A DNA stretch of 64,000 nt from Candidatus Nanoarchaeia archaeon (GCA_028279755.1 JANQNB010000010.1:92963-156962), one strand, 5' to 3'; positions 9,947 to 27,109 are shown, counted from the first letter of the stretch. Made by a program: numbers and translations. The notes: a model not told the origin generated them from the sequence alone.

Positions 9947-10333
9947 TCACTGGAAGAGCTGATCTAGTTCGTCTACGAGGTCACCTTTCTCTATCATGGT
10001 TTTGGGATTCAGGTTGTATTCCTGCGCGACTGCATTGTCGTTCTCAGAGATGTGATTGGACATGAGGATGATCCGCTCTTTGCCAACACCCTGCTCTATC
10101 AGGAATTTCCGCATCTCAGGACCGGCGCGGTAGCTTGGTCCATCTACCCGATCCAAATAGCCGCACATGTCAAGCAAATACAGATCGTACACGTCGCCCA
10201 TTTGCATGAAGAGGTCCTTGCCGGCGGCGACATCCGAGACGCCCGCGACGCTGGTATCAGTCCACCTCATCAACTCGCCAATAATGAAGATCCAATCAGG
10301 ATCATCATCTAGGACAAAAACGTCGATACTCAT
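9947..10333 (-). CDS. Stand-alone CheY-like response-regulator receiver domain protein
   Basis: Started at the internal Met MSIDVFVLDDDPD…, whose ATG overlaps the stop of 10330..11736 (ATGA). Receiver hallmarks present: DD pair (LDDD), phospho-acceptor Asp in 'LYLLDMCGY', S/T in 'ILMSNH', Lys in 'NLNPKT'. No output domain. Confidence 0.6.
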   Translation of the reverse strand: MSIDVFVLDDDPDWIFIIGELMRWTDTSVAGVSDVAAGKDLFMQMGDVYDLYLLDMCGYLDRVDGPSYRAGPEMRKFLIEQGVGKERIILMSNHISENDNAVAQEYNLNPKTMIEKGDLVDELDQLFQ

Positions 10334-12535: not shown

Positions 12536-13922
12536 TCTGGTTGGGCTTGTAGCCGACCTCTTTCGCGAGTTCCTTGAACGCCACGAGTTGTTTCATCTCG
12601 CCGTGCGTCGGGATGATGTTCTTCGGCTTGAGCATGTTCAGGAAGTCGCGGCCGTCCTCGCGCGCGCCGTGCCCGCTGACGTGGATATTGTCGAAGATGC
12701 GCACGTGACGCGATTGCAGCTTCGCGTCCAATCGCTTCCTGTTCTCCAGGCTCACCGGCACCGGAATCGTCTTTGAGGAGAACACGACCATGTCGTTGTC
12801 AGTCAAGCGCAGCAGGTTCTCGTTCACGATGCGTGACAAGACCGCTTTCGGCTCGCCCTGGTGCCCGGTCGCGACGAAGAGGAATTTGCCCGGATCGGTG
12901 ATCTTCTTCAGGTAGCTCTTCACCTTGCTGCCGTAGCGCACCTTCTCCACATCTGAGAAGTCTGCGAGGTCGACTGCTTCGGCTGCGTCGGTGTACTTCG
13001 AGAGCGAGCGTCCCAAGAACACTGTCTGTCGTTTCATCATCTTCGCCACGTTCACGATCGCGCGCAAGCGTGCGATATGGCTCGAAAATGTCGAGACGAT
13101 GATCGTCGCGTCACGCGATTGCGTCCCCAGAAGCACGTCTTTCAGCATCTCCTCAGCGATCTTTTCAGAAGGCGTCTTGATTGGCTGGTCTGCGTACAAG
13201 GTGTCGAGGATCAAATAGTCCACTTGCCCTTCGAGCTCGCGCAGGCGTGCATAGTTCGGCTTTGGTCCTAAGGTGGGATTGTTGTCGAACTTGAAGTCGT
13301 TCGCGTACAGCACCTTACCATAGGGTGTGTGCACCAAGGCCATCACGGTGTGCGGTGCGCTGTGCGTGATGTAGATGAACTCGATCTCGAATTTCGTTCC
13401 GACGCGGAAGCGGTCGTTCACGTCGTGCTCGACCAGCGTGCCCCGTGGCATGCGCTTCTCGTCGTCGTACATGCGGTCGACGAGCTCGATCGTGAATGGC
13501 GCTGCGTGGATGTCGCAGTCGAACTTGTTCGCGATGTATGGCACTGAGCCGATGTGGTCCAGGTGCGCGTGCGTGAGCACGATGCCGACCACATTCTTCT
13601 TCAGCTTTCCCAGGATGTCGACGTTCGGCGCCGCCCCGATCTCGATCAGTTTCCTTCCTGAGATCTCAACGAACTCGTCAGTGTCGGTGTATTCGATGTA
13701 CTTGTCCATCATGAGCCCGAGATCGAGCACCACGACTTCGTCGTCTGCGCGGATCGCGACGCTGTTGCGGCCGATCTCTGAGAAGCCTCCTAATGGGATG
13801 ATCTCCATCTTGGCCTTGCTGTTCTCGATCGCTTTTGTTGTCAGTTCTTTGATCCGTTTCTTGAACGGACGTCTTTTAGTCTTCTTTCTATGTGGTTTCT
13901 GTCTATTTCTTTGTCTATTCAT
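12495..13922 (-). CDS. rnj: Ribonuclease J (archaeal beta-CASP metallo-beta-lactamase RNase) with an unusual ~38-aa Lys/Arg-rich N-terminal extension
   Basis: …MEIIPLGGFSEIGRNSVAIRADDEVVVLDLG…VLTHAHLDHIGSVPY…YITHSAPH…ATGHQGEP…HVSGHGARED… carries MBL motifs 1-4 and the beta-CASP A/B/C motifs. N-terminal MNRQRNRQKPHRKKTKRRPFKKRIKELTTKAIENSKAK precedes the canonical MEIIPLGG start. Confidence 0.8.
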   Translation of the reverse strand: MNRQRNRQKPHRKKTKRRPFKKRIKELTTKAIENSKAKMEIIPLGGFSEIGRNSVAIRADDEVVVLDLGLMMDKYIEYTDTDEFVEISGRKLIEIGAAPNVDILGKLKKNVVGIVLTHAHLDHIGSVPYIANKFDCDIHAAPFTIELVDRMYDDEKRMPRGTLVEHDVNDRFRVGTKFEIEFIYITHSAPHTVMALVHTPYGKVLYANDFKFDNNPTLGPKPNYARLRELEGQVDYLILDTLYADQPIKTPSEKIAEEMLKDVLLGTQSRDATIIVSTFSSHIARLRAIVNVAKMMKRQTVFLGRSLSKYTDAAEAVDLADFSDVEKVRYGSKVKSYLKKITDPGKFLFVATGHQGEPKAVLSRIVNENLLRLTDNDMVVFSSKTIPVPVSLENRKRLDAKLQSRHVRIFDNIHVSGHGAREDGRDFLNMLKPKNIIPTHGEMKQLVAFKELAKEVGYKPNQIRIVKNGERVKIA

Positions 13923-14114: not shown

Positions 14115-15359
14115 TTATTTCAGCTTACGCACAATGCCCTTCTCAGCGTCGACTTCGATCATCTCGCCGTCTTTGAAGGCCCGTGTCGCTAGCTCTGTAC
14201 CGATAATGCAAGGCTTCTGCATCTCCCGTGCAACGATCGCAGCGTGACAGAGAATGCCTCCCTCGTCAGTCACGAACGCAGCAGCGCGATGCATAGCCCC
14301 GATCAGCTCCGGTGTGGTATTGCCTGTGACGAGGATTTCGCCTTCTCGCAACGCGTTCGCATCAGCCTGCGATAACACGATCCTGGCCTTTCCCTGCACC
14401 TTGCCGGCAAAAGCAGGCTCTCCACGCACTTCATCAACAGCCACTGGATCATATTCGGTAAGCTGTTCGTCAGCGATCAACTGCTCCACAGCATCCTTGC
14501 CTTCACAGGTGGAATAGGTATCATCACGCAAGAGGATTCCGTAGTGCTCGCTACGAATCTTATTCTGCGGAAGCCCGCCGCCATCAAGCCACGCGAAGAA
14601 TTCGTCCTCGAAGCAATTCATCACTGCTTCCTCATCCAGGTTCATCGCTTCCAAGGTCTTGCGCATCGCCCAGCTCGCGCGCACCACAGCGGCCTTTCCC
14701 TGATCAAGCACGTACAATGATTTCTGTGCGCACTGCACAAGCCACGAATCCTCTTTGCCATCTTCTTCATGCACGTGTTTCTTGACACTTTGCAGAGCTG
14801 CCGTGTACTCTTCGATACCCCATTCCTGTGCCATATATTCGGAGTGCAACCAGCCAAAACGGGAAGCCAAGGATGCGACATCATCTTTGTCCGCATCAAT
14901 GATTGCCTGGTGTTCCTGTTGCACCATGGTTGACTTGAACGGACGAGCCAAACGAAGATTAATATCGCTTGGACACCCAGGTTCTTGTTTGACCAAAGCA
15001 ACAAAATCCTTACCAATCCAATGGCCCATTGCCATGACTGCCATGACCCGACCAAATGTTTCGTAACAGACACGAATATGTTCTTTGTCCTTTCCTGGTT
15101 TGAGCTTGAGCACTTCTTCGATGAATTTCATGTGGTGATCGAAAAACGCGTCAACATCTTCTTGAGAAGAGGTTGTGATATTTGACACAGTATTTCTCTC
15201 AGGATAGAACATAATGCTCGCGCTCTGGTTCTTCACCACAAGCCCGTGCTTGATTTGCCAGAAGACAGGGTCATGCTTGTTTCCCTTGCGGGATTCGATA
15301 AGAAACTTATGCCATTGCAGCGGATAGATATTCCGTTGCACCACCTTAATCCATTTCAC
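14115..15359 (-). CDS. PEP-utilizer 'swivel' phospho-His domain protein, paralog 2
   Basis: C-terminus …GEILVTGNTTPELIGAMHRAAAFVTDEGGILCHAAIVAREMQKPCIIGTELATRAFKDGEMIEVDAEKGIVRKLK. The 5' end overlaps the stop of paralog 3 by 4 nt. Confidence 0.75.
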   Translation of the reverse strand: MKWIKVVQRNIYPLQWHKFLIESRKGNKHDPVFWQIKHGLVVKNQSASIMFYPERNTVSNITTSSQEDVDAFFDHHMKFIEEVLKLKPGKDKEHIRVCYETFGRVMAVMAMGHWIGKDFVALVKQEPGCPSDINLRLARPFKSTMVQQEHQAIIDADKDDVASLASRFGWLHSEYMAQEWGIEEYTAALQSVKKHVHEEDGKEDSWLVQCAQKSLYVLDQGKAAVVRASWAMRKTLEAMNLDEEAVMNCFEDEFFAWLDGGGLPQNKIRSEHYGILLRDDTYSTCEGKDAVEQLIADEQLTEYDPVAVDEVRGEPAFAGKVQGKARIVLSQADANALREGEILVTGNTTPELIGAMHRAAAFVTDEGGILCHAAIVAREMQKPCIIGTELATRAFKDGEMIEVDAEKGIVRKLK

Positions 15360-16654
15360 AGCTTCTTCACCACTCCCTTACTTGCATCGAGTAGGAGTGT
15401 ATCGCCATTCTTGAAGATTCCGGTCGCATCTTTCGTGCCGATCACGCACGGTTTGCGCATCTCGCGGGAAACAATCGCTGCGTGGCAGGTGATTCCGCCT
15501 TCGTCTGTGACGAACGCAGCTGCCTTGTGCATCGCCGGCATCATGTCAGGGGTTGTCATGCTTGTCACGAGGATCTCGCCGTCCTGGACCTGTGCCAAGT
15601 CCTTGTGCGAAAAGATGAGCCGTGCTGTACCGCGGATCGTGCCAGGGTAGGTGCCCCGTCCCTCAACCTTGTTGCCCGTGGCGCTGCTCTTGAACAAGAC
15701 TTTAATCTCCTTGTTCTCTTTCCCGGTGAGGATGGTCATCTGGTGCTCTTCGCCGATGAACGCGAATTCCTCCTGGCGTTCCTTGAGGTCTTTCGGCGGG
15801 GTTTCGAGCTCGTCCACCATGCAATGCAAGAGCTCGTCATAGGTCAGGTCTTTCTCTTTCGCGATCACTTTGAGCTTGTCTGCGTACTCATAAGCGACGC
15901 GGTTCATCACGTCGGTGCGTTGCGTCCGGTAATAGATGAAGAACTGCATCAGGTCGACAAGGAAGGCCTTGTCGCCCATCACGCTTTTCGCTTTCGCGAT
16001 CGCAGCGGTGATCGCCGCTTTTTCCTTCTCCTGCGTTTCGAGATAGTTCGAGGCTTTGAGATCCTTCAGCAGGATCTCTGCATCGTTCTCAGTGAGTTCG
16101 ACGATGCGGCCGTAGCGTGAGTGGAGAAACGGAAATTGCTCCATGAATGCTTGCTTGTCCTTGAGAATGAGCTGGTTCGCGAGCTTGTGATAGTTATCAA
16201 GAAGCGGCGTTGACAGCAATGTCATGAGCTCTGCAATCGTTTCCTCATCGAAATGCGGGCTGAGCAGGCTTTTCACCTTATTCTCGATCTGGCTGTCGCA
16301 GATGAAATAGACGCCTAAGCAGGGGATATACTCCCGATATGCCTGGCAGAAGGTCTGCAGATCCTCCTTCACCGCTGCGAGCAACGCGGCTTCTTTCTTG
16401 AGCGTGACTTTTTTCAGCATCTGCCAGAACTCTTCGTTCTTGAACAGCCTGACCTTCAGCTTCTTGGGAAATTCTTGCATGTAATAGCGCGTGTAGTACC
16501 AGACCCGGTCGATATTGATCAGATCGTTCACGACTTCATCGATGTCGAACGCTTGCCAGATTTCCCTGCTCTGATACGCTTGGAAGATGAGCGAGATATA
16601 GAACGGCGGATACGGGCGCCTGACCGTCTTCTGGAACTTCGCAGGATCAACCAA
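15356..16654 (-). CDS. PEP-utilizer 'swivel' phospho-His domain protein, paralog 3
   Basis: C-terminus …GEILVTSMTTPDMMPAMHKAAAFVTDEGGITCHAAIVSREMRKPCVIGTKDATGIFKNGDTLLLDASKGVVKKL. The 5' end overlaps paralog 4 by 8 nt. Confidence 0.75.
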   Translation of the reverse strand: MVDPAKFQKTVRRPYPPFYISLIFQAYQSREIWQAFDIDEVVNDLINIDRVWYYTRYYMQEFPKKLKVRLFKNEEFWQMLKKVTLKKEAALLAAVKEDLQTFCQAYREYIPCLGVYFICDSQIENKVKSLLSPHFDEETIAELMTLLSTPLLDNYHKLANQLILKDKQAFMEQFPFLHSRYGRIVELTENDAEILLKDLKASNYLETQEKEKAAITAAIAKAKSVMGDKAFLVDLMQFFIYYRTQRTDVMNRVAYEYADKLKVIAKEKDLTYDELLHCMVDELETPPKDLKERQEEFAFIGEEHQMTILTGKENKEIKVLFKSSATGNKVEGRGTYPGTIRGTARLIFSHKDLAQVQDGEILVTSMTTPDMMPAMHKAAAFVTDEGGITCHAAIVSREMRKPCVIGTKDATGIFKNGDTLLLDASKGVVKKL

Positions 16655-18068
16655 TGCGCCTCACCACACCTTTCTCTGCATCGACCTCGACAAGATCGCC
16701 GTCTTTGAAGACTTCTGTCGCGATCCTTGTCGCGATCACGCAGGGCTTCTTCAGTTCGCGCGCGACGATGGCTGCGTGGCACGTGATGCCGCCTTCGTCT
16801 GTGACGATGGCTGCCGCTCTTTTCATCGCTGGCACGTATTCCGGCAAGGTCATGCCGCAAATCAAGATGTCGCCATCTTCGACCTTCGCGAGCGCTTCTC
16901 TGGCGCCAGCGCAGACTTTTGCTGTTCCTCGAGCCGCGCCAGGGCTTGCACTCTCTCCTTTCACTTCTGTGATCGTATCATCGACTGAGGGCACGACCTC
17001 TTCTTTCTTGCGAAGCGCTTCTTCGCCACTCCATCGCTCGATAGCGCCTTTTGACGCGATCCCACCAACAGCCTTTTTGCGAATCTCGATTTCATTCGTG
17101 TCAGTCTTCCCGGTTCTCATGAGTTCCAAGAGTTCATCATGCCACAACCATTCAAGGTCATCATGTTCGAAGCCATGACGGCGCGCAGTTTCAGTCACGA
17201 ACAAATCAGTTGCGTGCACAGTCTTGCATTGCATCTCTTTGCGCATGTCGTGCCAGTAGGTATACTCTTCAAACAAGTCTATTTGGTATTGTGTTTCTTC
17301 AGAAAGCTTGTATTGCTCAAACAGTGTTCGCTTTTCTTTCTTGATCCGCTCGACGTATCCTTGAATCTCCTCAAGTTCTGTTGTGCCAGTCTTCTCAATT
17401 TCTTTGATCTGCGCAAGATAGCTTCCTTTGGTGTTCAGCGCAAGCGTTTCCCATCCGAGCACTGTCCACCAGTATTTCTCGACGATCTCATTGATCTTTT
17501 TGTAGTCTTTGCTCTGCGCGACTTCGAGCAGCATCTTTTTTTCCGCTTGCAGATAACTTTCATATGCTGGCGAGCTCAAGACACGCCAGAGTTTGACAAA
17601 CTCTTCCTCGCTCACGCCCAATTCTCGTTTGACGCGCGCTTTCAATCGCTCTGCTGGCAAGATGTCAACAGCGTCAACGTCACTGTTGAGGAATCCGTGC
17701 GGTGGCCAGACCGCTTCAAGGAATGCTTCATATGCACTGGCGAGTTCTTCATCACTGAGACTTGTCAAGTCCATTGCGCGGATCTTCTCAACAGCTGCAA
17801 CTGCCTGGTCAAAGGCTTGCTGCATCTTGGCAAAGTGTCGCTTTCGCTTCTCTGGCGTGCTCGTCTGCGCAAGAATGTGTTTTCCTGTCGCTTCGAGCTC
17901 GTCACGGTCCCAGGCAAACCACATCTTCGGCCCAAGGTTGCAATAGAACGTGCTTCCTGCTTCACCACCATTATACTCTGCGCCGTACTTGGCCGCGCCA
18001 AACAACACCATGCTCAGCTTGATCGGATGGATGGTTCCACGGGTGTACATCTCCCAGTTATGTTTCAT
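16647..18068 (-). CDS. PEP-utilizer 'swivel' phospho-His domain protein, paralog 4
   Basis: C-terminus …GDILICGMTLPEYVPAMKRAAAIVTDEGGITCHAAIVARELKKPCVIATRIATEVFKDGDLVEVDAEKGVVRRIG. The N-domain shares the 'LSDEELA..' and 'KYWWTVLGW' blocks with paralog 5. Confidence 0.75.
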   Translation of the reverse strand: MKHNWEMYTRGTIHPIKLSMVLFGAAKYGAEYNGGEAGSTFYCNLGPKMWFAWDRDELEATGKHILAQTSTPEKRKRHFAKMQQAFDQAVAAVEKIRAMDLTSLSDEELASAYEAFLEAVWPPHGFLNSDVDAVDILPAERLKARVKRELGVSEEEFVKLWRVLSSPAYESYLQAEKKMLLEVAQSKDYKKINEIVEKYWWTVLGWETLALNTKGSYLAQIKEIEKTGTTELEEIQGYVERIKKEKRTLFEQYKLSEETQYQIDLFEEYTYWHDMRKEMQCKTVHATDLFVTETARRHGFEHDDLEWLWHDELLELMRTGKTDTNEIEIRKKAVGGIASKGAIERWSGEEALRKKEEVVPSVDDTITEVKGESASPGAARGTAKVCAGAREALAKVEDGDILICGMTLPEYVPAMKRAAAIVTDEGGITCHAAIVARELKKPCVIATRIATEVFKDGDLVEVDAEKGVVRRIG

Positions 18069-19471
18069 ACGCGCCTCACCACGCCTTTTGTCGTATCTAC
18101 TTCAATAGTGTCGCCGTCCTTGAAGATCTTCGTCGCGACGCGCGTGCCGACGATGCAGGGCAAGCCGAGTTCGCGGGAAACGATCGCAGCGTGCGACGTC
18201 ATTCCGCCTTCGTCTGTCACGATCGCACTTGCTTTCCGCATCGCGACCACGTAGTCAGGCGAAGTCATCGGCGCGAGCAAGATCTCGCCGTCTTTCATCT
18301 TTTCCACATTGCGCGGCGTGAGCAGAATCCGCGCCTTTCCCTGCACGATCCCTGTGCCCTGACTCACCACGATGCCGGAAGCTTCGTCTTCGTTTTCGAT
18401 CTCGACTTCCTGGTATGGCTCGATCATCCGTCGCGCTTCGTTACCCACATGATAGGTGAGGGTATCACCTTCGTCGTAATGGCAGAGATAGCCACGATAG
18501 CGTTCTTGCGCATTCTCCACTGTTTCTCCCTTGTTGGCGAGCGCTGAAATCTCTGGCACGTTGTAATAGCAGAGCTCCTTGAACGGAATGCCTTTACGTT
18601 TGCCCAGTTCTTCGAGAATCTTCGAAACGACGTGGTTGCTGATGAAGATGAACTGCTTGCGATAGTCCTGCCACCAGATGCTGTAGCTCAAGCGGCGCGC
18701 GACCTCATAGACCTCGTCAGCGATATTGTACTTCTCCCTGACTCTCTCTTTTTCCTCAAGAACCTTGACTTTATATTCTTCGATCGCTGCGACTTTCTTT
18801 TTCGCTTCGTTCAGGGAGATATTGTTAAGCTCTTCCTGGAATTCCTCTTTTGTCTTCTCAAACGTGAATCCATAGCTGTTCCTGATCCAGTAGTATTTCT
18901 TCTGGTGCTCTTCAAGCGTCGTCTCGCCGAGCTTCACCTTGAGCAAGTCCAGCTCTTCTGTCTGGTAAAAACTCAAATCCTCAGGTGTTGACAGTTTCTC
19001 GAATAGTTCGATAAAGGCCTCATGCCCTTCCAACAATCGTTTCAGTTTTTGTTCCCCGCCCCAGTTGGAGAATTCAGGCAATAAGCCGGTGATCCAGAAG
19101 TCCATGTCCCAGTCGCAGAGATTGTTCCACACGCCAGCGAGCTCTTCGTCAGACAGTCTTGTCAGGTCTGCATTGACTTGCTCTTCAAGTTCACGGAGAC
19201 GAACCAAAGTTGCTTCCCACTTCTTGAAATGCTGCTCTGCACTTTCCTTGTCCATGAGATGCGCGTTGAACAGTTTCTCACCGTAGTCGCGCAGCTTCCA
19301 GTATTCGACCACGAAGAGCACCTTGTCATCTTCGAAATACGCGAAGGATTCAGGCCAGGGGACTTCCCATACTTTGCCGTACTTGGGAAAGCTGTGGTTG
19401 AAGAAGTCTGGATAGATCGGCCGGCCGTCGATAGGCCCCCATTTGAAGAGTTCCTTGTTTAGGTCGATCAT
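18065..19471 (-). CDS. PEP-utilizer 'swivel' phospho-His domain protein, paralog 5
   Basis: C-terminus …[74 protein letters not shown]. The N-domain has …[13 protein letters not shown]… and …[12 protein letters not shown]…. Confidence 0.75.
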   Translation of the reverse strand: [468 protein letters not shown]

Positions 19472-20092: not shown

Positions 20093-20194
20093 TGAGGGGA
20101 CTGGGATTCGAACCCAGGTAGGCACTAAGCCGACGGCTTGCACATCAATAACCGACTTTGAGGCCGTTCCGTTTGACCGCTCCGGCATCCCCTC
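20093..20194 (-). tRNA. tRNA, type II (long variable arm), predicted anticodon CAA (Leu), with a predicted ~18-nt intron 3' of position 37; CCA not encoded
   Basis: Minus-strand read: GAGGGGA-UG-CCG(GAGCGGUCAAA)CGG-A-ACGGC-CUCAAA[GUCGGUUAUUGAUGUGCA]A-GCCGU-(15-nt variable)-CUGGG-UUCGAAU-CCCAG-UCCCCUC-A. The 7-bp acceptor stem is perfect (GAGGGGA/UCCCCUC), the T-loop UUCGAAU is canonical, the D-stem has 3 bp with GG in the loop, and the discriminator is A73. The anticodon stem ACGGC/GCCGU only forms if 18 nt are removed; the intron contains UUG, complementary to the anticodon CAA as expected for a bulge-helix-bulge. Confidence 0.6.
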
Positions 20195-20259: not shown

Positions 20260-20644
20260 TTACAGCTTGCTCAACCGTTCGTTGATGTTCGCGAGCGCGC
20301 GTTCGAGTCGTTCCGCTTCTGTGGCTGAGTCGACCGGTGCAGGCGCTTCCTCAGCAGCCTTCTCCAACGAGCTCTTCTTCGCTTTCTTGGCCTTTTTCGG
20401 CGCTTTTGGCAGGAACTCTTCGACTTCCTTCAGCGATTTCTCAGGCATGAGCTTCTCCAGCTGCGCGCACAGGCGCGCGAGCTCGCCCATGGTGTCGCTC
20501 AGCGCTTCTGCTGTCTCTTTCTTCTGGTCGCGGATCTCGAGCAGCTCGTGATAGCTCTTCAGGCTGTGCAGCAGGTCCTTGCTGCTTTCCAGCACGCGCT
20601 TGCGCATCGCGACTGGCTCGTTGATCCGGACGAAGTATGTCATT
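20260..20644 (-). CDS. Hypothetical coiled-coil, Lys-rich protein (~127 aa), third gene of a 3-gene minus-strand operon
   Basis: Started at MTYFVRINEPVAMRKRVLESSKDLLHSLKSYHELLEIRDQKK…KAPKKAKKAKK…; its ATG overlaps the stop of the 71-aa ORF (ATGA). Confidence 0.45.
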
Positions 20645-20855
20645 TGAACAGGCTTGCGTGCAGTTCGCCGCTGCGGGCTTTCACGTCCTCGAGCGAGGCT
20701 TCCCACGCTGCTATCTGTGCATCCTCTTGCTGCTTCAGTTTCTGGAGCTGCTCGAGCTGCTTGCTCGCTTCCTTGATCTTCTCGTCCACTTGCGAGAGGA
20801 CTTCGGTGAGCTCCTTGTACTTGTCGATCTTGACGAAGAGTGGCGCTTCTTCCAT
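20640..20855 (-). CDS. Small coiled-coil protein (71 aa)
   Basis: MEEAPLFVKIDKYKELTEVLSQVDEKIKEASKQLEQLQKLKQQEDAQIAAWEASLEDVKARSGELHASLFK. Spacing is tight: 4 nt after the 297-aa gene, ATGA into the next. Confidence 0.4.
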   Translation of the reverse strand: MEEAPLFVKIDKYKELTEVLSQVDEKIKEASKQLEQLQKLKQQEDAQIAAWEASLEDVKARSGELHASLFK

Positions 20856-20859
20856 GCGT

Positions 20860-21753
20860 TCACCTCGTGGCTAGGGTGTTGTCCAACTGGACAAGCTGTT
20901 CTTGTATTGTGTTGAGCGTATCTGCATACTTGCCGAACTTCTCCTTGTGCTGCGCGATGCTCTGGTTGAGCTTGTCCATCGCGGCATCGCCTTTCTGTGC
21001 TGCTTTCTTCAGATCACGGACTGTCGTGAGCGCTTCCCGATAGCCGATGGCAGGAACATACAGGGATTCCATGGTGAGCTTGGGCGGCAAGGTCATGTCG
21101 TCCAGGCTGGGAAGCTCTTCCTGCCTGTGCACTGGCTCGACTGGCTGGCTCATCTTCTCTGCAGCTTCGATCTCTGCCTCGCTGAAGTCCGGGAGTTCGA
21201 CTGGCGCGGGTTTCTTCTCTTCCACGACTGGCTCTGGCTTGTCGTCGCCGATCGGCAAAGCGCTGTCGTCGCTTTCCATAATCCCTGGCGCGTCCCAACG
21301 ATCAGGCAAATCTGTTGCGGCGCTCACCGGAGCGGCAGGAGGTTTCTCAGGCGCTGGGCTAGTTTCAGGGAGTGGAGCATCGCTTGTGTCCGCAGGCGCA
21401 GCCAGTTGGTCCGGCGCTGTTGGCGCATCTGTTGGAGGTGATTCTGGTGCAGGCGGCTTGAACTCTGAGAGATCGTCGTCGTTGTGCACGTCGTCGTGAA
21501 CCGGGAGCTCGTCCGGCGCTATGGGGTGATCAGGCGTTTTCGGCGTGTCAGCTCCGAGCTCGCCGAAGCTGTCATCAGGGATTTCCGGAGTTTGTGAGAC
21601 TTCAGGGCTGGCCGGGGGAGTATCTGGCACGCTGGGCGCTGGTTGCGGATCGCCAGGTGGTGGAGGAATCGACGGTTGCAGATTTTCCGGAGGCTTTGCT
21701 GGGGCGATTATGTCATCCTCCGGCTTCTTGTTCAAGAATCCAAAAAATCCCAT
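20860..21753 (-). CDS. Pro/Asp/Glu-rich low-complexity protein with N-terminal amphipathic segment (MGFFGFLNKK) and C-terminal helical domain
   Basis: 297 aa. Central region is PxxP-rich (PPPGDPQPAPSVPDTPPASPE…); the C-terminal ~90 aa are predicted helical (…YREALTTVRDLKKAAQKGDAAMDKLNQSIAQHKEKFGKYADTLNTIQEQLVQLDNTLATR). A TATA-like 'AAATATATAAAAAAG' lies ~35-45 bp upstream. Confidence 0.5.
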   Translation of the reverse strand: MGFFGFLNKKPEDDIIAPAKPPENLQPSIPPPPGDPQPAPSVPDTPPASPEVSQTPEIPDDSFGELGADTPKTPDHPIAPDELPVHDDVHNDDDLSEFKPPAPESPPTDAPTAPDQLAAPADTSDAPLPETSPAPEKPPAAPVSAATDLPDRWDAPGIMESDDSALPIGDDKPEPVVEEKKPAPVELPDFSEAEIEAAEKMSQPVEPVHRQEELPSLDDMTLPPKLTMESLYVPAIGYREALTTVRDLKKAAQKGDAAMDKLNQSIAQHKEKFGKYADTLNTIQEQLVQLDNTLATR

Positions 21754-21830: not shown

Positions 21831-22691
21831 TTATCGTCGAGAAGCGAGTTCGCGTCCGAGTGTTCTGGGGTCGCGAATTCCCTGCTCGGTGATGACCGCT
21901 GTGACAAAGCTCGGATTGAGGAATTCGAACGCGTTGTTCAGCACGGTCACGTTCTTCGGCGCTTTGTCCCAGACCTCATCGCTGCTCCTGATCTCAAGGT
22001 GCTTCTTGTAGTGCGCTGCGTCTGCGTGCGCATATTTCCACGAGGAAGCGAGCACGTACACCGGGATGTCGCGTTCGTGGGCGAGCTCTGCGATGACTTC
22101 GCTGCCGATCTTGTTGACGATCTTGCCGTCGCTCAGGAGCGCGTCTGCGCCGATGAGCACTGCCTTGCAGTTCTTGACCGCTACCCGTGCAGCGCTGTCG
22201 ACCATGTGCACGACAGGGATGCCGGCTTTTGCAAGGTCCTTTGCTGTTTGCCGTCCCTGGAAACGCGGCCGAGTCTCGGTGTTGTGCACCTCAAAGCGCT
22301 TCCCTTGCTTTTTTGCAGTGAGAAAGGCGTGCACGACCGTGCTGCTGTGGCAGTGTGTGAAGTATGTGCCCTTGTTCTTGATCAGATGGCTGGCGAAATC
22401 AGCGATGCGTTTGTCAGCGCGATCGAATTGTGTCAGCAAGTGCGCCAGGATTTTGTCCGCGTTCTTCGGTTCCGCGTGCTTCAAGAAGTACTCGATCGCG
22501 TTCTGCATCATCGGCTCTGTGCTGCGCGTCTTGAGCAATTGGTTCACGAATTTTTTCGGCACTGCTTTCTTCGTTTCTTTCAGGTATCGTGCGAGCCCCT
22601 TGACAGCGGCGCGCGCGATGTTCTCAGCGCCTTGGATCTTGAGCGACTTGATGTCTGCGACGAGCTGGTCAAACCATTTCACATGCATCAC
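21831..22691 (-). CDS. Ribose-1,5-bisphosphate isomerase (eIF-2B alpha/beta/delta-like; AMP-salvage pathway)
   Basis: …HCHSSTVVHAFL…GIPVVHMVDSAARVAVKNCKAVLIGADALLSDGKIVNKIGS…IPVYVLASSWKY… is the e2b2/MtnA-family fold. It lies directly downstream of AMP phosphorylase and RuBisCO; the start overlaps the deoA stop. Confidence 0.8.
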   Translation of the reverse strand: MMHVKWFDQLVADIKSLKIQGAENIARAAVKGLARYLKETKKAVPKKFVNQLLKTRSTEPMMQNAIEYFLKHAEPKNADKILAHLLTQFDRADKRIADFASHLIKNKGTYFTHCHSSTVVHAFLTAKKQGKRFEVHNTETRPRFQGRQTAKDLAKAGIPVVHMVDSAARVAVKNCKAVLIGADALLSDGKIVNKIGSEVIAELAHERDIPVYVLASSWKYAHADAAHYKKHLEIRSSDEVWDKAPKNVTVLNNAFEFLNPSFVTAVITEQGIRDPRTLGRELASRR

Positions 22692-24178
22692 CGAATCGTG
22701 TAGGGTTCCAGTTCCTTATCGTATTTCTTCACGTGCCGGATCTTCTCGGCGCTGTCAGCGTAGGCGGTGTATATCGGCTCGCCCTTCCTGACCTTGTCGC
22801 CGACGATCTTGTGCAAATACAATCCCGCGCCTTTCGTGATCGGCGCGCCAGCCATGCGCGCGAGCTTTGAGATCGCCTTGTTGTGGATGGCGATGACTGT
22901 CCCTTTTTTCGCCGCTTTCAGCACGAGCCGTTTGCGTCCGAGCCGAAACTGCTCTTTCGGCGGCCCCTGCGCGTCGATGATCTCCTGCATCTTCTTCCAC
23001 GCGCTGCCGCTCTCGAGGATATCCTTCGCAACCTCGTAGCTCGCCTTCTTCGACAGCCTGCCAGCGAATTCCAGGAGCTCTGCCGCGAGCAGTAAGGCTT
23101 TCTCTTTCAGGCGCTGCGGCGCATTCTCCTTGTTCTGCAGCACGGCAAGGACGTCCTTGGCCTCGAGCACCGGACCGATGCCGCGCCCGATCGGCTGGTT
23201 GCCATCGGTGATCATCACGTTGACCTTCATGCCAAGCAGGGTCCCGAGGGACAAGAAGTGCTGCTTGAGCTCCTCTGCTTCGAAGCGCTTCTCTGCCTTG
23301 GCGTGCCTGCCATACGGGATGTCGATGAGCACGTGCGTCGCGCCAACGCTGAACTTCTTAGCCATCACGCTGGAAAGCATCAGGCCCATTGCGTCGATGC
23401 TCATCGGCTTCTCGATCCTGATGATTTTGTCGTCAGCAGGCGCAAGTCCTAATGAGCCGCCCCAGGTCATGCACGCGCCGGTCTTCGCGACAACGTGCTC
23501 CATCTCCTCGAGAGTGAGCTCGACGTTCGTCAATGTTTCCATCGTGTCCGCAGTCCCTGCAGGCGAGGTGATGGCGCGACTGCTTGTCTTCGGCACCGTC
23601 AGTCCGAAGGCTGCGAGTATTGGGATGACGATCATGGTCGTCCGGTTCCCGGGCACGCCGCCGATGCTGTGCTTGTCCACGACTGGCCGTTTCCGCGTCT
23701 TGAAACGCGAGCCGTGGCGCGCGACCGCTTTAGTCAGGCCGGTGATCTCTTCAAGATTGAGTTCCTGCATCGCCACTGCCGCGACAAAATACGTGAGCTC
23801 GATCTCTGTGAGCATGTCGTCCACGATATCCTTGACGATCTTGCTCAGCTCGTTGCTCGTCAGCGTCTTGCCTTCCATCTTCTTCTTGATGAAACGCAGG
23901 CTGTCGGGCTTCGGCGCGGGGTGGAGGTCGACGATATCGTTGTTGTGCGCGCCGAGCGCGTTCGCAGCCTCGAAGAGCACGCCGACCTCGCCGGGCTTGA
24001 CGTTCTCGTCGGTCTTGATCACGTCCACGACCGCGATGATCTTTTTCTTCTTCCCGATTGTCTCGACCATGACACGGTCGCGTGGGTGCAGGTCGTACTT
24101 GATCGCGTCGCGATGGTTGATGATCACGACTTCAGTGAAGCCTGTCTCGATCCTGACATTCCGAACCTTGAGTTTCAT
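22688..24178 (-). CDS. deoA: AMP phosphorylase (thymidine phosphorylase family, DeoA-like)
   Basis: 496 aa. …DKHSIGGVPGNRTTMIVIPILAAFGLTVPKTSSRAITSPAGTADTMETL… is the phosphate-binding/glycosyltransferase family-3 core, with an N-terminal extension typical of archaeal AMPpase. Confidence 0.85.
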   Translation of the reverse strand: MKLKVRNVRIETGFTEVVIINHRDAIKYDLHPRDRVMVETIGKKKKIIAVVDVIKTDENVKPGEVGVLFEAANALGAHNNDIVDLHPAPKPDSLRFIKKKMEGKTLTSNELSKIVKDIVDDMLTEIELTYFVAAVAMQELNLEEITGLTKAVARHGSRFKTRKRPVVDKHSIGGVPGNRTTMIVIPILAAFGLTVPKTSSRAITSPAGTADTMETLTNVELTLEEMEHVVAKTGACMTWGGSLGLAPADDKIIRIEKPMSIDAMGLMLSSVMAKKFSVGATHVLIDIPYGRHAKAEKRFEAEELKQHFLSLGTLLGMKVNVMITDGNQPIGRGIGPVLEAKDVLAVLQNKENAPQRLKEKALLLAAELLEFAGRLSKKASYEVAKDILESGSAWKKMQEIIDAQGPPKEQFRLGRKRLVLKAAKKGTVIAIHNKAISKLARMAGAPITKGAGLYLHKIVGDKVRKGEPIYTAYADSAEKIRHVKKYDKELEPYTIR

Positions 24179-24182
24179 GCCG

Positions 24183-25568
24183 TCATCTCCGCTTCTTCTT
24201 CACCTTCTTTTTGACTTTCTTGGCCTTTTTCTTGATTTTTTTCTTGGGTTGTTCAACGCGCCGCTTGGCTTTGCCCCATTTCATCAATGCGCGTGCCAGT
24301 TCCTGGTGGTCTTTCGCGTACTGGCTCAGGGAGATGCCTTTCTCTGTCGCTTCCCAGGCCTGCCTGATCGCTTTCGCGCCTGCGAACGTGCCGTCCGGGT
24401 GCCCGTGGCAGCCCCCGCCGAACTGCATGACGATGTCAGTGCCCATAAGCCTGACGATCTTGGGAATGCTGAGCGGGCTCAAGCCCCCTGAGGCGACTGC
24501 AAGCACTGGCTTGATCTTGCCCCATTTCTGGTGCAGCACGTGGTGGAACTCGTCAGCGAACACTTCCTGCTTCTCGACCATGCGTTCGATAGCCAAGACT
24601 TCGTCGGGCGCGCCTTCCATCTTGCCGATGTTCGCCGTGCCGATGTGCAATTGGTCGACGCCGATGAGCCGTGAGATCTTCGCGATGGCGAACATGTCGA
24701 TGCCATGGCGCTTGTCGCGCGTGAGCGCGCCGTGCATCGCCCGGTGCGCGTGGATCGCCATCTTGTGCTTCTGGCACCAGTCACGCATGGTCTGCACTGC
24801 AGCCCAGCCCACTGTCAAGATGTCGATCATGATGTACTCGCCGCCGAGCTTCTTCACGAGCTTTGCGCGTCGTTTCATTTCCTCGGTTTCGGCAGTGACG
24901 TTGCACAGGTAGATTTTGATCTCGTTCGTCACCCGTTCTGCTCTGTCTCGTGCCGCGAACGTGAGCTTTGCGCGTTTCTTGAACCGGTTGAAGGACATGC
25001 TCGTGAGGTTCTCGTCGTCCTTCACCACGTCGAGGCCGCCGGTCCATGCTTGCCACGCGACGTCTGCGTGCTGCTCGCTCGTGAGCCCGACTTTTGGCTT
25101 GACGATCGTGCCGAGCAATGGCCGATTCTTCACTTTCGTGATTTTCCTGATGCCTTCGATGCCGAACTGCGGCCCTTTGAAGCTCTTCAGGATCGTGTCG
25201 GTGAACCTGATGTCTTCCAATCGGAGTTTCGCGAGCTCTTTCATGCCGTAGATGTTGCCGGCGATGCTGCTCAGTATACCGGGCATGTTGCCGGGCTCGA
25301 ACAAGTGCTCTGGATACGCGATCTTGACTTCGCCGTTCTTCTTGATCGAGTAGACGTGCGGTTTGAGCGTTTTTGCGATGGTCGGGTTCATGGTCTGGAT
25401 CTTGGTCCACGTGCCGATCGAGCTTTCGCCGGCGATGTATTCTGCCGCGCGCTCTATCGTCGTTCCTTTGATTGGCGTGACGATGTAATTGAGCAGCACG
25501 TCGGTCTTTTTCGGTTTGTATTGTTTGTCCACGAAATCCAGATTGCCGTAGATGGTCATGATTCTCAC
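24183..25568 (-). CDS. rbcL: Ribulose-1,5-bisphosphate carboxylase large subunit, form III (archaeal type), with a 25-residue poly-Lys C-terminal tail
   Basis: …GTIVKPKVGLTSEQHADVAWQAWTGGLDVVKDDENLTS… (active-site Lys in KDDE), …MAIHAHRAMHGALTR…, …VASGGLSPLSIPKIVRLMGTDIVMQFGGGCHGHPDG…; the C-terminus is …QPKKKIKKKAKKVKKKVKKKRR. Confidence 0.9.
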   Translation of the reverse strand: MRIMTIYGNLDFVDKQYKPKKTDVLLNYIVTPIKGTTIERAAEYIAGESSIGTWTKIQTMNPTIAKTLKPHVYSIKKNGEVKIAYPEHLFEPGNMPGILSSIAGNIYGMKELAKLRLEDIRFTDTILKSFKGPQFGIEGIRKITKVKNRPLLGTIVKPKVGLTSEQHADVAWQAWTGGLDVVKDDENLTSMSFNRFKKRAKLTFAARDRAERVTNEIKIYLCNVTAETEEMKRRAKLVKKLGGEYIMIDILTVGWAAVQTMRDWCQKHKMAIHAHRAMHGALTRDKRHGIDMFAIAKISRLIGVDQLHIGTANIGKMEGAPDEVLAIERMVEKQEVFADEFHHVLHQKWGKIKPVLAVASGGLSPLSIPKIVRLMGTDIVMQFGGGCHGHPDGTFAGAKAIRQAWEATEKGISLSQYAKDHQELARALMKWGKAKRRVEQPKKKIKKKAKKVKKKVKKKRR

Positions 25569-25569
25569 C

Positions 25570-26874
25570 TCATAGTTCTATTTCATCTCCGAGTTCCGGG
25601 CCGTACACCTTGAAGGGTGTCTCTTTCTTCGCCCATGCAAGCATGTTGGTGACGCTTTCCTCATCCCCGTGCTGGATGATGAGTGTTTCCGGCTCGATCT
25701 GCCAGATGGTCTTCTTGATGTCTTCGATGTCTGCGTGTCCTGAAAAATCGAACTTCTTCACCTCGCATTTCACCGGGGTCTTCCAGCCGTCGATGTGCAC
25801 ATAGCCTTCGTCGATCAGGTGCCGGCCGTTCGTGCCCTCTACTTGATACCCTGTCAGGAAGACCGCGTTCTTCGGGTCGTGCCACATGTGCTTTATGTAG
25901 CCCACGGCTGGCCCGCCCTGCATCATGCCGCTGGTGGTGACGAAGATGGCTGGCTGCTGCTGCGCGATTTGCATCCGCCGTTCCTGGCTGGAGATGAGCT
26001 CGACGCGTTCGAACAGCATCTTGTGCAATTTGTCCTTATTGATGACGTAGTCGCTCCTGTTCGCGAGGATCTTTCTCGTGATCTCCTTGCACATCCCGTC
26101 GAAGTAGATCGGGCAGCCGAAATCCTCGTCGGCAAGCATGATGAGTATCTCCTGCGATCGCCCGAGCGCGAACACGGGGACGAGGACCGAGCCGCCGCGT
26201 TGCAGGACTTTCTTGATCTCCTGGACAAAGGTCTGCTCCAAGCCTTTGCGTGGCGGCAGCTTCCTATGGCCGTACGTGCTTTCGGTGATGAAGATGTCGA
26301 TTGGCCCATGCTCGTTCTTGATTTGCTCGCCGTTCGCCGGTTCCATCAGTCTCGTTGTGCGGGTGTTGAAGTCGCCAGTATACAGGATGCGCTTTCCTTC
26401 TGCTTCGCAGAGGATCATCGCGCTTCCCGGGATGTGGCCTGCGTTGAGGAACATGAATTTCAAGTGCCGGTGCTTGTACCAGCGGTTGTAGCTGACCCGG
26501 TGCGCGTCTTTCTGGACTTCTTTCAGGTCGCGCTTGCCCCATGCTGGGTGGAGATGTTTGACATGCGCGATCTTATAGCTGTCCTTGAGCAGGATCTTGG
26601 TGATCGCCAAGGTCTCGTGCGTGAGGAAGATCGGGCAGACGAGGTTGTAGTGCTCCATGAAGGGCAGCGCGCCGGTGTGGTCAAGGTGCGCGTGGCTGAT
26701 GAGCACGCCGTCGATCTTGGGCACGTCGAAGACCTTGTCCGGGTATTTGTAGCCGTGGGTGCAGAACTTGACCCCGCAGTCGAGCAGGTAGCGGTCGCCG
26801 TGCGTCTGTATCTCGATGCAGCTTCTGCCGACTTCTCGCGCTGCGCCATGGAAAATGAGCTTCACACCCTGCAC
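25570..26874 (-). CDS. Metallo-beta-lactamase / beta-CASP family nuclease (aCPSF2-like), first gene of the rbcL operon
   Basis: …LISHAHLDHTGALPF… (HxHxDH), …GHIPGSAMI…, …ILYTGDF…, …FSGHADIEDI…HGDE… are beta-CASP motifs A-C. It ends 1 nt before the rbcL start. Confidence 0.75.
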   Translation of the reverse strand: MQGVKLIFHGAAREVGRSCIEIQTHGDRYLLDCGVKFCTHGYKYPDKVFDVPKIDGVLISHAHLDHTGALPFMEHYNLVCPIFLTHETLAITKILLKDSYKIAHVKHLHPAWGKRDLKEVQKDAHRVSYNRWYKHRHLKFMFLNAGHIPGSAMILCEAEGKRILYTGDFNTRTTRLMEPANGEQIKNEHGPIDIFITESTYGHRKLPPRKGLEQTFVQEIKKVLQRGGSVLVPVFALGRSQEILIMLADEDFGCPIYFDGMCKEITRKILANRSDYVINKDKLHKMLFERVELISSQERRMQIAQQQPAIFVTTSGMMQGGPAVGYIKHMWHDPKNAVFLTGYQVEGTNGRHLIDEGYVHIDGWKTPVKCEVKKFDFSGHADIEDIKKTIWQIEPETLIIQHGDEESVTNMLAWAKKETPFKVYGPELGDEIEL

Positions 26875-26963
26875 CTCTCACGTGCATCCACGAGGAAGAG
26901 GGTATTTAAAGCTTCCGTAGGTAGAAGGGTAAAAAGTGTTTAGTGAGGCAATTCCATGGCAAA

Positions 26964-27109
26964 AGGCTTAGACTGCGTATTGGCTGTTGAACACGACGCC
27001 GCTGTAGTTCGCGATCTGGTCCGGATCCTCGCTGTACTTCTCAGCGTTGATGCGCGCCCGGTCTTCCATCAGGTCGTACGGGCTCTGGCGTGGTTCGCGT
27101 CGTGTCATC
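26964..27109 (-). CDS. Candidate small ORF (48 aa) with upstream TATA-like box (not in ORF track)
   Basis: Hand translation: MTRREPRQSPYDLMEDRARINAEKYSEDPDQIANYSGVVFNSQYAV*. 'AAAAATATAAAG' lies ~35 nt upstream. Speculative. Confidence 0.2.

Follow-up and report, generated by a model that had tools for sequence, protein, structure and literature searches.

What is a ribonuclease gene doing at the head of the genes for a RuBisCO-based nucleotide-salvage pathway, and why should the RuBisCO itself end in a long run of lysines? Both questions are raised by a gene cluster within the 64,000-nt stretch of DNA analysed here (hereafter the window), which belongs to a very small, Woesearchaeota-like archaeon of the symbiotic type. 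DPANN archaea are thought to live on host or environmental nucleotides or nucleic acids, with form III RuBisCO turning ribose into glycolytic intermediates, and we know of no established route by which nucleic acid enters the DPANN AMP pathway.

Gene layout and transcription signals

An earlier note on this DNA had placed four ORFs on the minus strand, and all four are present at the coordinates and in the order that it gave, with the beta-CASP nuclease gene first, ahead of rbcL. Its further claims that the genes are tightly packed and that the cluster holds a complete AMP shunt were likewise supported. The features of the cluster and its surroundings are as follows:

26903..26910, minus strand: archaeal TATA-like box TTTAAATA, preceded by GGAAGC and placed ~30-40 nt before the start codons of the nuclease gene; predicted operon promoter
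25570..26865, minus strand: beta-CASP ribonuclease, 431 aa (434 aa from an alternative GTG at 26874)
24183..25559, minus strand: form III RuBisCO large subunit (rbcL), 458 aa
24186..24275, minus strand: polybasic C-terminal tail, RbcL residues 429-458, 20 K/R in 30, predicted disordered
22688..24178, minus strand: AMP phosphorylase (AMPpase), DeoA-type with AMPpase-specific N-terminal domain, 496 aa
21831..22691, minus strand: ribose-1,5-bisphosphate (R15P) isomerase, e2b2 / IF-2B family (e2b2), 286 aa
21788..21798, minus strand: T6 run, then overlapping TTTATATA, within the 77 nt that separate e2b2 from the next gene; predicted operon end and promoter of the next unit
20260..21753, minus strand: three conserved genes (297, 71 and 127 aa; the downstream trio) found by tblastn; separate predicted transcription unit

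The beta-CASP ORF spans 25570-26874, its likelier start being the GTG at 26865, which has a GAGGTG Shine-Dalgarno sequence 7 nt upstream, and the rbcL ORF spans 24183-25568, with a likelier ATG start at 25559 preceded by GGTGA. The 1-nt gap previously described between these two genes holds only if rbcL starts at the upstream GTG and becomes 10 nt with the ATG start, whereas the 4-nt gap between rbcL and AMPpase stands as described. The junction between AMPpase and e2b2, previously given as an ATGA overlap, instead reads cgGTGATGcat, so that a GTG start yields a GTGA overlap and an ATG start yields TGATG with one base shared. The proteins of the downstream trio matched no Pfam family.

The cluster's coding strand has no TATA-like octamer before 21795 apart from the box TTTAAATA; the AT-rich filter used to find such octamers also matched two lysine-codon A-runs. 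One TATA-like box upstream of the nuclease gene, together with a T6 run and a new TATA box after e2b2, fits a single transcription unit, and we predict that the four genes are co-transcribed. In more distant members of the clade described below, the spacer between the nuclease gene and rbcL measures 47-85 nt (~190 nt in L003); these longer spacers hold AT-rich, TATA-like stretches such as CCTTTAAATTAC in L026, so rbcL may have a promoter of its own in such genomes.

Assignment of the pathway enzymes

RbcL scored 576.4 bits against the form III family TIGR03326 (cutoff 497.45), with the RLP families scoring far lower. Both PF02788 and PF00016 (RuBisCO_large_N and catalytic domains) matched, as did PDB entries 6hun and 1geh over residues 7-431. 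We checked the catalytic set that separates carboxylases from RuBisCO-like proteins (equivalents of K175, K177, K201, D203, E204, H294, R295, H327, K334, S379, G381, G403 and G404), and found that K154-P155-K156, K180-D181-D182-E183, H272-R273, H305, K313, S357-G358-G359 and G381-G382-G383 of RbcL are invariant in an alignment of 34 sequences (A1). This points to a form III RuBisCO, predicted to act as a carboxylase on ribulose-1,5-bisphosphate (RuBP).

AMP phosphorylase scored 561.8 bits against TIGR03327 (cutoff 535), and its residues 1-491 align to residues 1-488 of the Thermococcus kodakarensis AMPpase 4ga5, i.e., over the full length. It carries the extra N-terminal domain of ~85 aa that marks this family and is absent from pyrimidine and thymidine phosphorylases, the latter aligning from about residue 95 only. 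For e2b2 the best family was TIGR00511, yet at 178.5 bits it falls below the cutoff of 314.1, and the Pfam match is IF-2B. Its best PDB matches are the R15P isomerases 5yfj and 3a11 (E ~1e-39), with MTR-1-P isomerases and eIF2B subunits ranking lower, and its THCHS and GADA/GADS motifs align with those of R15P isomerases, including the Cys and Asp that we take, following the T. kodakarensis literature, to be catalytic.

The archaeal AMP (pentose bisphosphate) pathway has been characterised in T. kodakarensis, and its genes are reported to be clustered in both CPR bacteria and DPANN archaea (PMC5113843, PMC6389311). The cluster in the window shares with it the same three enzymes, also clustered, which match the solved proteins of T. 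kodakarensis and Pyrococcus over their full length and have conserved catalytic residues, but differs in being led by a beta-CASP ribonuclease gene and in the polybasic tail of RbcL. Text searches of PMC6389311 turned up neither nuclease nor extension nor lysine; the pathway is already known, and what is new is the tail and the nuclease linkage.

Identity of the nuclease

The Pfam matches of the nuclease are limited to Lactamase_B, Beta-Casp and RMMBL, with no KH domains, and its best PDB matches are 2ycb, 2i7t and 2dkf. It aligns with the core of the aCPSF1 2ycb (residues 182-610), and the metal-binding and beta-CASP motifs (1-4 and A-C) are present in this alignment, namely HAHLDH, NAGH, YTGDF, ITESTYG, FSGHAD and IIQHGD. 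Its best NCBIfam match is the aCPSF1 core. We rejected its assignment as aCPSF1 / FttA (TIGR03675), since the score of 298 bits lies below the cutoff of 580, the match is confined to model positions 175-628, and the two N-terminal KH domains required are missing. Cas14 of Type VII CRISPR systems (NF045584) was rejected as well, at 255.7 bits against a cutoff of 800 with only model positions 1-425 of 612 covered; no CRISPR context was seen around the nuclease gene.

At 431 aa, the protein has the architecture that defines aCPSF2 (COG1236), i.e., an MBL plus beta-CASP core of ~420 aa without N-terminal KH domains. A separate KH-bearing aCPSF1 of 630 aa is encoded in the related genome L024, and JGI gives some homologs of the nuclease COG1236-type names ('Cft2 family RNA processing exonuclease', 'putative mRNA 3-end processing factor'). 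We regard the protein as a putative KH-less CPSF73-type beta-CASP ribonuclease; it is a candidate member of the aCPSF2 clade, for which the JGI names are indirect support, but may instead be a KH-less offshoot of aCPSF1. Archaeal enzymes of the aCPSF2 type, such as Sulfolobus Sso0386 and Saci-aCPSF2, are 5'-3' exoribonucleases (PMC3553952, PMC3792030). The characterised relatives of the nuclease in archaea release 5'-NMPs, and the same activity and products are predicted for the nuclease. It is like this group in its core-only length (~420-430 aa, no KH) and in having all MBL and beta-CASP motifs, but unlike it in the linkage of its gene to nucleotide-salvage genes, of which we found no report in the literature for aCPSF2.

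Conservation and origin of the linkage

The order nuclease-rbcL-AMPpase-e2b2 occurs in 11 independent contigs of one Woesearchaeota clade (the window, L001, L002, L003, L020, L022, L025, L026, L031, L032 and the P0010 contig), with nuclease identities of 57-81%, a locus GC of 0.32-0.64, and upstream neighbours that differ from locus to locus. The linked nucleases fall within one clade of an NJ tree. One of these loci (L032) has kept the four genes and lost the downstream trio, and in L029, outside the 11, the nuclease gene adjoins that of AMPpase alone. Orthologs of the nuclease (54-63% identity) are found in many Woesearchaeota with no rbcL next to them, such as L027 and L028, where the neighbours are unrelated, and L024 and L030, where the trio (~320-350, 71-72 and 141-166 aa) follows the nuclease gene directly with no cassette between; a hyp71 homolog lies at the expected position in L024.

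Because orthologs sit with unrelated neighbours or with the trio, apart from the cassette, the nuclease has a role independent of the AMP pathway, and because the trio directly follows it in L024 and L030, the nuclease gene, probably a housekeeping one, seems to have been in place before the cassette was inserted behind it. The most likely history, judging from these gene orders, is that the rbcL-AMPpase-e2b2 cassette was inserted in the ancestor of the clade and has been retained since. Other DPANN rbcL loci (L007, L021) have a HAD hydrolase instead, with no nuclease nearby; adjacency to the nuclease gene marks out a single Woesearchaeota clade.

Possible coupling of RNA decay to nucleotide salvage

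Our preferred explanation, to which as a whole we give a probability of roughly 0.45, is that the four genes make up a true operon, found in a Woesearchaeota-like DPANN archaeon and conserved across a single clade, that arose by insertion of the cassette, funnels RNA into salvage, and encodes a RuBisCO whose tail binds a polyanion. The operon-encoded nuclease, a putative 5'-3' exoribonuclease, would break RNA down to NMPs; AMP phosphorylase would convert NMP and phosphate to R15P, which the e2b2 isomerase would turn into RuBP; and form III RuBisCO would combine RuBP with CO2 and water to give two 3-phosphoglycerate (3-PGA). The products of RNA breakdown would in this way be funnelled into central carbon and energy metabolism, while the polycationic tail, held on a polyanion (RNA being the best candidate), would keep RuBisCO near its nucleotide source. 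Such a flux from RNA into the AMP pathway is plausible, and a ribonuclease ahead of the three pathway genes would provide it with a concrete entry point, RNA giving NMP and this in turn R15P, RuBP and 3-PGA.

The linkage could also be a matter of descent and promoter capture without metabolic coupling, a laterally acquired cassette having landed between a housekeeping nuclease gene and the trio in one ancestor and persisting there by use of the nuclease promoter. We consider this a serious contender, with a chance only somewhat short of even. It accords with the trio standing straight after the nuclease gene in L024 and L030 (and the hyp71 homolog in L024), with nuclease orthologs in genomes and contexts that lack rbcL, with the trio's own predicted promoter in the window, and with the part that lateral transfer plays in shaping the distribution of DPANN RuBisCO (PMC6389311). 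Capture alone does less well with the persistence of the adjacency through reshuffling of both flanks, change in GC, disappearance of the trio in L032 and reduction of the cassette to AMPpase beside the nuclease gene in L029, and with the fact that a 5'-3' exoribonuclease yields exactly the substrate class of AMP phosphorylase. A useful annotation would remain even if the coupling proposed in our preferred explanation and the tethering of RuBisCO both fail.

The polybasic tail of RbcL

RbcL continues for 30 residues past the conserved ...KWG end (GKAKRRVEQPKKKIKKKAKKVKKKVKKKRR), with 20 K/R and 1 E. The lysine-rich tail noticed earlier is real, but its length had been put at 25 residues, and the string then quoted counts 22. 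Solved RuBisCO structures end 2-4 residues past KWG, which bears out that the tail is extra, and comparable tails recur in related genomes: ~30 of the 120 closest homologs, from independent assemblies, bear polybasic, almost acid-free tails of 6-99 residues, with the other homologs stopping at KWG. The tailed homologs fall into two separate sequence clusters (cluster A, 44% K/R and 3.5% D/E; cluster B, 62% K/R and 0.5% D/E) from genomes of 31-64% GC, and the tails stay basic in genomes of 64% GC (L002, L003). Among the best 150 representatives of RuBisCO clusters at 50% identity, no further cluster showed a polybasic tail, and where representatives of more distant clusters were inspected, their extensions at the C-terminus are not polybasic. 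The AlphaFold model, with pLDDT < 50 and no secondary structure past about residue 428-430, predicts that the tail is disordered.

Tracts of such basicity are confined, among the ~58 ORFs of the window, to RbcL (16 K/R in 20) and the N-terminus of RNase J (12 in 20), whose basic extension had likewise been pointed out. Across 314 ORFs from 32 related loci, at least 12 K/R in 20 occurs only in RbcL ORFs, and a threshold of at least 9 in 20 picks out, besides RbcLs, a single ribosomal uL4 and some weaker cases. Within the nuclease-linked clade some RbcLs have no tail at all (L026, L032) and others have up to 99 residues, so the tail is dispensable, and since a tailed RbcL of the second cluster stands alone in L021 with no nuclease nearby, tail and nuclease linkage are independent features. 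We propose that the tail is selected for charge rather than sequence; most likely it binds a polyanion, for which RNA is the best candidate judging by the composition of the tail and the similar basic appendages on RNA-handling proteins of the same lineages, at the C-terminus of uL4 and the N-terminus of RNase J. The three pathway enzymes RbcL, e2b2 and AMPpase also lie near the basic extreme of the window's proteins (pI 9.96, 9.81 and 9.57 vs. a median of 6.7).

Lysine-rich disordered tails are known from nucleic-acid-binding proteins, such as the C-terminal domain of histone H1, actinobacterial HU/HupB and topoisomerase I. The RbcL tail resembles these in its K/R/A/P/T/V composition with almost no D/E, predicted disorder, fast sequence turnover and variable length, but sits on a metabolic enzyme, and its nucleic-acid binding is only putative. 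We found no literature report of a polycationic tail on RuBisCO. Reported variants include a 29-aa insertion in form II/III, an 11-aa insertion in 'III-like' and RuBisCO-isomerase fusions in form III-c (PMC6389311); these too are lineage-specific additions in CPR/DPANN, but they are internal insertions or domain fusions, whereas the RbcL tail is terminal, low-complexity and polycationic.

A tail without a specific ligand, whether low-complexity sequence that is simply tolerated or an adaptation of overall charge or solubility, which would have arisen as the stop codon shifted into the spacer and only acidic residues were selected against, seems unlikely to us, if hardly negligible. Neither sequence nor length (0 to 99 residues) is conserved, in most DPANN homologs the core of RbcL is strongly basic to begin with (pI 9.2-9.8), and near-neutral cores (P0007, P0008, P0009, P0010, P0013) loosely tend to bear long tails; yet the tail's appearance in two separate clusters at 31-64% GC with 44-62% K/R and <4% D/E, the rarity of polybasic termini among neighbouring proteins, and the absence of polybasic character from the extensions inspected on more distant RuBisCO cluster representatives all speak against this view.

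A bolder version of the polyanion-binding reading is an RNA-to-3PGA catabolic metabolon in one DPANN clade, in which the operon's exoribonuclease would release NMPs while strongly cationic AMP-pathway enzymes are held on RNA by the RuBisCO polylysine tail, possibly in an RNA-protein condensate. We rate the metabolon as rather improbable; if true, this RuBisCO would be the first to carry its own module for binding nucleic acid or for condensation. The tail, which recurs in two lineages, offers a simple handle on whether the RuBisCO of such archaea is tethered to, or condenses with, RNA.

Speculative, and in our view quite improbable, is a tail that serves self-assembly or membrane association rather than RNA tethering, whether by polycation-polyanion condensates that concentrate RuBisCO (cf. 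the basic linker peptides of carboxysomes and pyrenoids) or by contact of a K3-4 / hydrophobic repeat (KKKIKKKAKKVKKKVKKK) with anionic lipids. The KKK-hydrophobic pattern recurs in the window tail, P0008 and cluster B, and predicted disorder would suit such a role, but the core of RbcL carries a positive charge too (net +18 in the window), which makes attraction between tail and core unlikely without a polyanion, and no genes for a scaffold or shell were seen around the cluster. Finally, an assembly or frameshift artefact, as the error-prone A7 run and AAG/AAA repeats of the tail-coding DNA might suggest, is effectively refuted by a reading frame that runs unbroken from the catalytic core into the tail and ends 4 nt ahead of the AMPpase start codon, and by the in-frame recurrence of such tails in independent NCBI, JGI, ENA and Logan assemblies; because the tail is real, tailed RbcLs should not be trimmed or flagged as frameshifts.

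Gene layout and transcription unit

The cluster consists of four head-to-tail ORFs on the minus strand, in a layout that is established as operon-like.

Genes of the cluster
25570-26874, minus strand: beta-CASP nuclease, 431 aa (likelier start GTG at 26865, with GAGGTG upstream)
24183-25568, minus strand: rbcL, 458 aa (likelier start ATG at 25559, with GGTGA upstream)
22688-24178, minus strand: AMP phosphorylase (AMPpase), 496 aa
21831-22691, minus strand: e2b2, IF-2B family isomerase, 286 aa

The earlier note had described gaps of 1 nt and 4 nt followed by an ATGA overlap. The 4 nt between rbcL and the AMPpase gene stand as claimed; the 1-nt nuclease-rbcL gap is obtained only with the upstream GTG of rbcL, and becomes 10 nt with the likelier ATG; and the AMPpase-e2b2 junction reads cgGTGATGcat, a GTGA or TGATG overlap in place of ATGA. 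Because the window has a GC content of 54%, AT-only octamers are rare in it, and the coding strand of the cluster holds only two TATA-like boxes: TTTAAATA at 26910, ~30-40 nt 5' of the nuclease start, and TTTATATA at 21795, within the 77-nt spacer past e2b2 and directly after a T6 run. Since these boxes are found only before the nuclease gene and after e2b2, we predict from sequence that the four genes share one transcript and that the three genes beyond them belong to another; the probability that the four form an operon in this genome we put at about 0.75.

We additionally observed a 46-aa ORF, MTRREPRQSPYDLMEDRARINAEKYSEDPDQIANYSGVVFNSQYAV (26967-27107, minus strand), flanked by the putative operon promoter and, on the other side, the divergent DUF7523 gene. 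This ORF has a TATA-like AAATATAAA of its own at ~27143, and a T5 run lies at 26935; small ORFs occupy the matching position in the related locus L020. Farther downstream, a tRNA gene (20093-20194, minus strand; Rfam match of 45.7 bits) is preceded by its own TATA-like TTTATAAA at 20257, and probably contains an intron, since it is 102 nt long and was missed by ARAGORN.

Enzyme identities

The gene identities are established, and the AMP-pathway enzymes named in the earlier note were borne out, RbcL and AMPpase by curated cutoffs and e2b2 by nearest structures and motifs. RbcL exceeds the cutoff of the curated form III model (TIGR03326, 576 bits vs. 497), its catalytic RuBisCO residues are invariant in an alignment of 34 relatives, and among solved structures the archaeal form III enzymes 6hun and 1geh come closest to it. 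AMPpase exceeds the TIGR03327 cutoff (562 bits vs. 535) and its full length is matched by the T. kodakarensis enzyme 4ga5; the match takes in the N-terminal domain absent from thymidine phosphorylases. For e2b2, TIGR00511 is the top family, yet its 178 bits lie below the cutoff of 314; among solved structures its top matches are two R15P isomerases (5yfj and 3a11), and the THCHS and GADA motifs are conserved.

The nuclease contains Lactamase_B, Beta-Casp and RMMBL domains with a complete set of metal-binding and beta-CASP motifs, and a Pfam search detected no KH domains. Its top structure matches are 2ycb, CPSF73 (2i7t) and TTHA0252, and it matches the aCPSF1 model in the core only (298 bits vs. 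a cutoff of 580). By this architecture it is a candidate member of the aCPSF2 (COG1236) group, of which the characterised members are 5'-3' exoribonucleases (PMC3553952, PMC3792030). An assignment to Cas14 of type VII CRISPR was rejected, as the score falls far below cutoff and the resemblance reflects shared beta-CASP ancestry only. Best matches for both RbcL and the nuclease come from Woesearchaeota/Nanoarchaeota MAGs, which marks the source as a member of the DPANN archaea.

A recurrent polybasic tail on RbcL

In all solved RuBisCOs, and in some 85 of the 120 closest homologs, the chain stops 1-5 residues past the conserved KWG, while the window RbcL runs 30 residues beyond it (GKAKRRVEQPKKKIKKKAKKVKKKVKKKRR; 20 K/R, 1 E), so that the tail is indeed extra relative to other form III enzymes, as the earlier note had proposed. 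Among the same 120 homologs, polybasic tails occur in two sequence clusters, comprising ~30 homologs from related genomes.

Clusters of tailed RbcL homologs
Cluster A, the window's own clade (P0001-P0016, P0030): tails of 10-99 residues, pooled 44% K/R and 3.5% D/E
Cluster B, ~60% identical to the window RbcL (P0043, P0044, P0048, P0049, P0050, P0059, P0064, P0066, P0069, P0070, P0075, P0080, P0086, P0091): tails of 6-53 residues, pooled 62% K/R and 0.5% D/E

A frameshift or assembly artefact is excluded, because these ~30 tailed homologs are independent and derive from separate NCBI, JGI, ENA and Logan assemblies. AT bias likewise does not explain the lysine tract in the window's clade: cluster A loci span 32-64% GC, tails remain basic at 59-64% GC (those in 64% GC genomes being richer in R, A, P and T), and a 32% GC member of the clade has no tail. 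The tail sequences cannot be aligned with each other, composition alone being conserved, and AlphaFold, run with a 34-sequence alignment, gave a confident RbcL core but pLDDT <50 and no secondary structure for residues 431-458. We consider it established that the tail is real, recurrent, charge-selected and predicted to be disordered. Among the best 150 representatives of the RuBisCO superfamily (50%-identity clusters), no polybasic tail was found elsewhere, and several carry other, non-polybasic C-terminal extensions.

A proteome-wide habit of polybasic termini is unsupported within the 64-kb window and the related loci. Only 2 of ~58 window ORFs have such termini, RbcL and the N-terminus of RNase J, and among 314 ORFs of related loci at least 12 K/R in 20 residues are reached by RbcLs only; when the threshold is lowered to 9, they are joined by one ribosomal uL4 and a few weaker cases. 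The RNase J extension noted earlier is present:

12495-13922, minus strand: RNase J (RNase_J_b_CASP, RMMBL), basic N-terminal extension MNRQRNRQKPHRKKTKRRPFKKR

Its ortholog in L029 has a longer, R/T/P-rich extension, and those in L020 and L031 have short, barely basic ones. The uL4 is that of a related Woesearchaeote (L024, 10828-11769), and its lysine-rich C-terminal tail, PVKTAKKVVKKSTKVKTAKKPVKKTKTKKE, is similar to the RbcL tails. Even without the tail, RbcL cores are unusually basic in most DPANN homologs (pI 9.2-9.8); in the window, where the median pI over 50 ORFs is 6.7, RbcL (pI 9.96), e2b2 (9.81) and AMPpase (9.57) rank with the most basic, and the nuclease has a pI of 7.8.

Our best guess is that the tail binds a polyanion, most likely RNA, a tentative reading to which we give slightly less than even odds and which draws on composition and on the similar appendages of RNA-handling proteins in the same lineages. 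The tail is not essential, given tail-less members inside the clade.

Clade-level linkage of the nuclease gene and rbcL

In the genome collection, the nuclease gene lies immediately upstream of rbcL in all three loci with RbcL identity of at least 70% (L001-L003), and in 0 of 16 more distant loci. We also sampled contexts from the nuclease side, across nuclease homologs; a metagenome scan with the nuclease as single query returned 2 loci only, its peptide patterns being too specific, and contexts were taken from exact-protein look-ups in its place.

Gene arrangements around the nuclease (trio, the three genes downstream of e2b2 in the window; cassette, rbcL-AMPpase-e2b2)
Nuclease-rbcL-AMPpase-e2b2: window, L001, L002, L003, L020, L022, L025, L026, L031, L032, P0010 contig
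Nuclease-AMPpase-trio-RNase J: L029
Nuclease-trio, without the cassette: L024, L030
Nuclease with unrelated neighbours: L027, L028

Another five nuclease/RbcL pairs are probably co-located too, as both members of each pair come from contigs of identical length. In other DPANN lineages no nuclease was found beside rbcL: in L004 and L006-L008 there was no match to it, though e2b2 and AMPpase genes are nearby; L007, alone among these in having Pfam annotation, shows the order e2b2-HAD hydrolase-rbcL with overlapping genes, and L021 a lone rbcL beside a HAD gene.

The trio (20260-21753, minus strand; 297, 71 and 127 aa in the window) follows e2b2 in most linked loci. Its homology was confirmed by tblastn inside the clade, with the 71-aa gene also found in L024, and Pfam searches returned no family for it, only coiled-coil noise. 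Neighbour joining of 120 nuclease homologs, a simple distance method without support values, places the linked genes in one clade with L029 and L030 nested inside and L024, L027 and L028 outside. The simplest history is that the nuclease-trio arrangement is older, that the cassette was inserted once between them, and that it was later lost in L030 and partially lost in L029.

Upstream neighbours vary within the linked clade (DUF7523, methyltransferase, HVO_A0114-like gene, Hjc, LTD protein) and L032 lacks the trio, yet the nuclease gene stays directly before rbcL despite these changing flanks and GC contents of 32-64%; linkage is thus established as conserved at clade level. In the window, L001, L002, L020 and L022, the spacer is very short, from -4 to +13 nt, and a Shine-Dalgarno sequence overlies the stop codon; it measures 47-85 nt in L025, L026, L031 and L032 and ~190 nt in L003. 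Since some of the longer spacers hold AT-rich, TATA-like stretches, co-transcription may not be universal in the clade.

From this co-location, a genuine metabolic coupling, in which the nuclease would supply 5'-NMPs to AMP phosphorylase, seems possible, though we lean slightly against it. Such coupling is appealing on chemical grounds, since the 5'-NMPs that a 5'-3' exoribonuclease releases belong to the class of substrates used by AMP phosphorylase, and it agrees with the proposal that DPANN archaea live by scavenging nucleotides. It is weakened by the wide occurrence of the nuclease ortholog without the cassette, which implies another, probably housekeeping, role; alternatively, the cassette may merely have captured the nuclease promoter.

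CPR and DPANN genomes are already known to carry deoA, e2b2 and form III/II-III RuBisCO genes as a cluster (PMC5113843, PMC6389311). A text search of the main DPANN/CPR RuBisCO survey found no mention of nuclease, extension, C-terminus or lysine, and our literature searches, of partial coverage and thus absence of evidence only, returned nothing relevant on lysine-rich or C-terminally extended RuBisCO in DPANN or on ties between the pentose bisphosphate pathway and ribonucleases. The pathway and the kind of organism are both known; two variants had so far gone unremarked, the recurrent polycationic tail of RuBisCO and the clade-conserved ribonuclease gene heading the operon. Both are of moderate interest, and only a demonstration of RNA tethering or of RNA-to-3PGA coupling would raise this to high.

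Other neighbouring genes

Across Woesearchaeota, the trio proteins measure ~230-360, 71-73 and 117-166 aa, are Pro-rich and coiled-coil, and adjoin a KH-less beta-CASP gene with or without the RuBisCO cassette (L024, 7378-9165; L030, 7364-8943; L020, 10060-11584). A HAD_2-family hydrolase, which may be a phosphoglycolate or sugar phosphatase, adjoins rbcL in Woesearchaeota without nuclease linkage (L007, 6563-9290; L021, 5313-7356; L030, 8975-9616). In a single case, a GNAT acetyltransferase gene lies on the opposite strand between the AMPpase gene and e2b2 (L031, 10211-10690), and the RbcL of this cassette also has a lysine-containing tail.

Finally, the window contains six paralogous minus-strand ORFs of 352-473 aa (8063-9121, 10330-11736, 14115-15359, 15356-16654, 16647-18068 and 18065-19471), four of them in tandem with small overlaps. 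Each has an unassigned N-terminal region of ~280-390 aa and ends in the 'mobile' phosphohistidine domain that Pfam lists as PEP-utilizers (E 1e-23 to 1e-28); ATP-grasp and PPDK_N domains were detected in none of the six. This expansion is unusual, and lies close to a pathway ending in 3-PGA.
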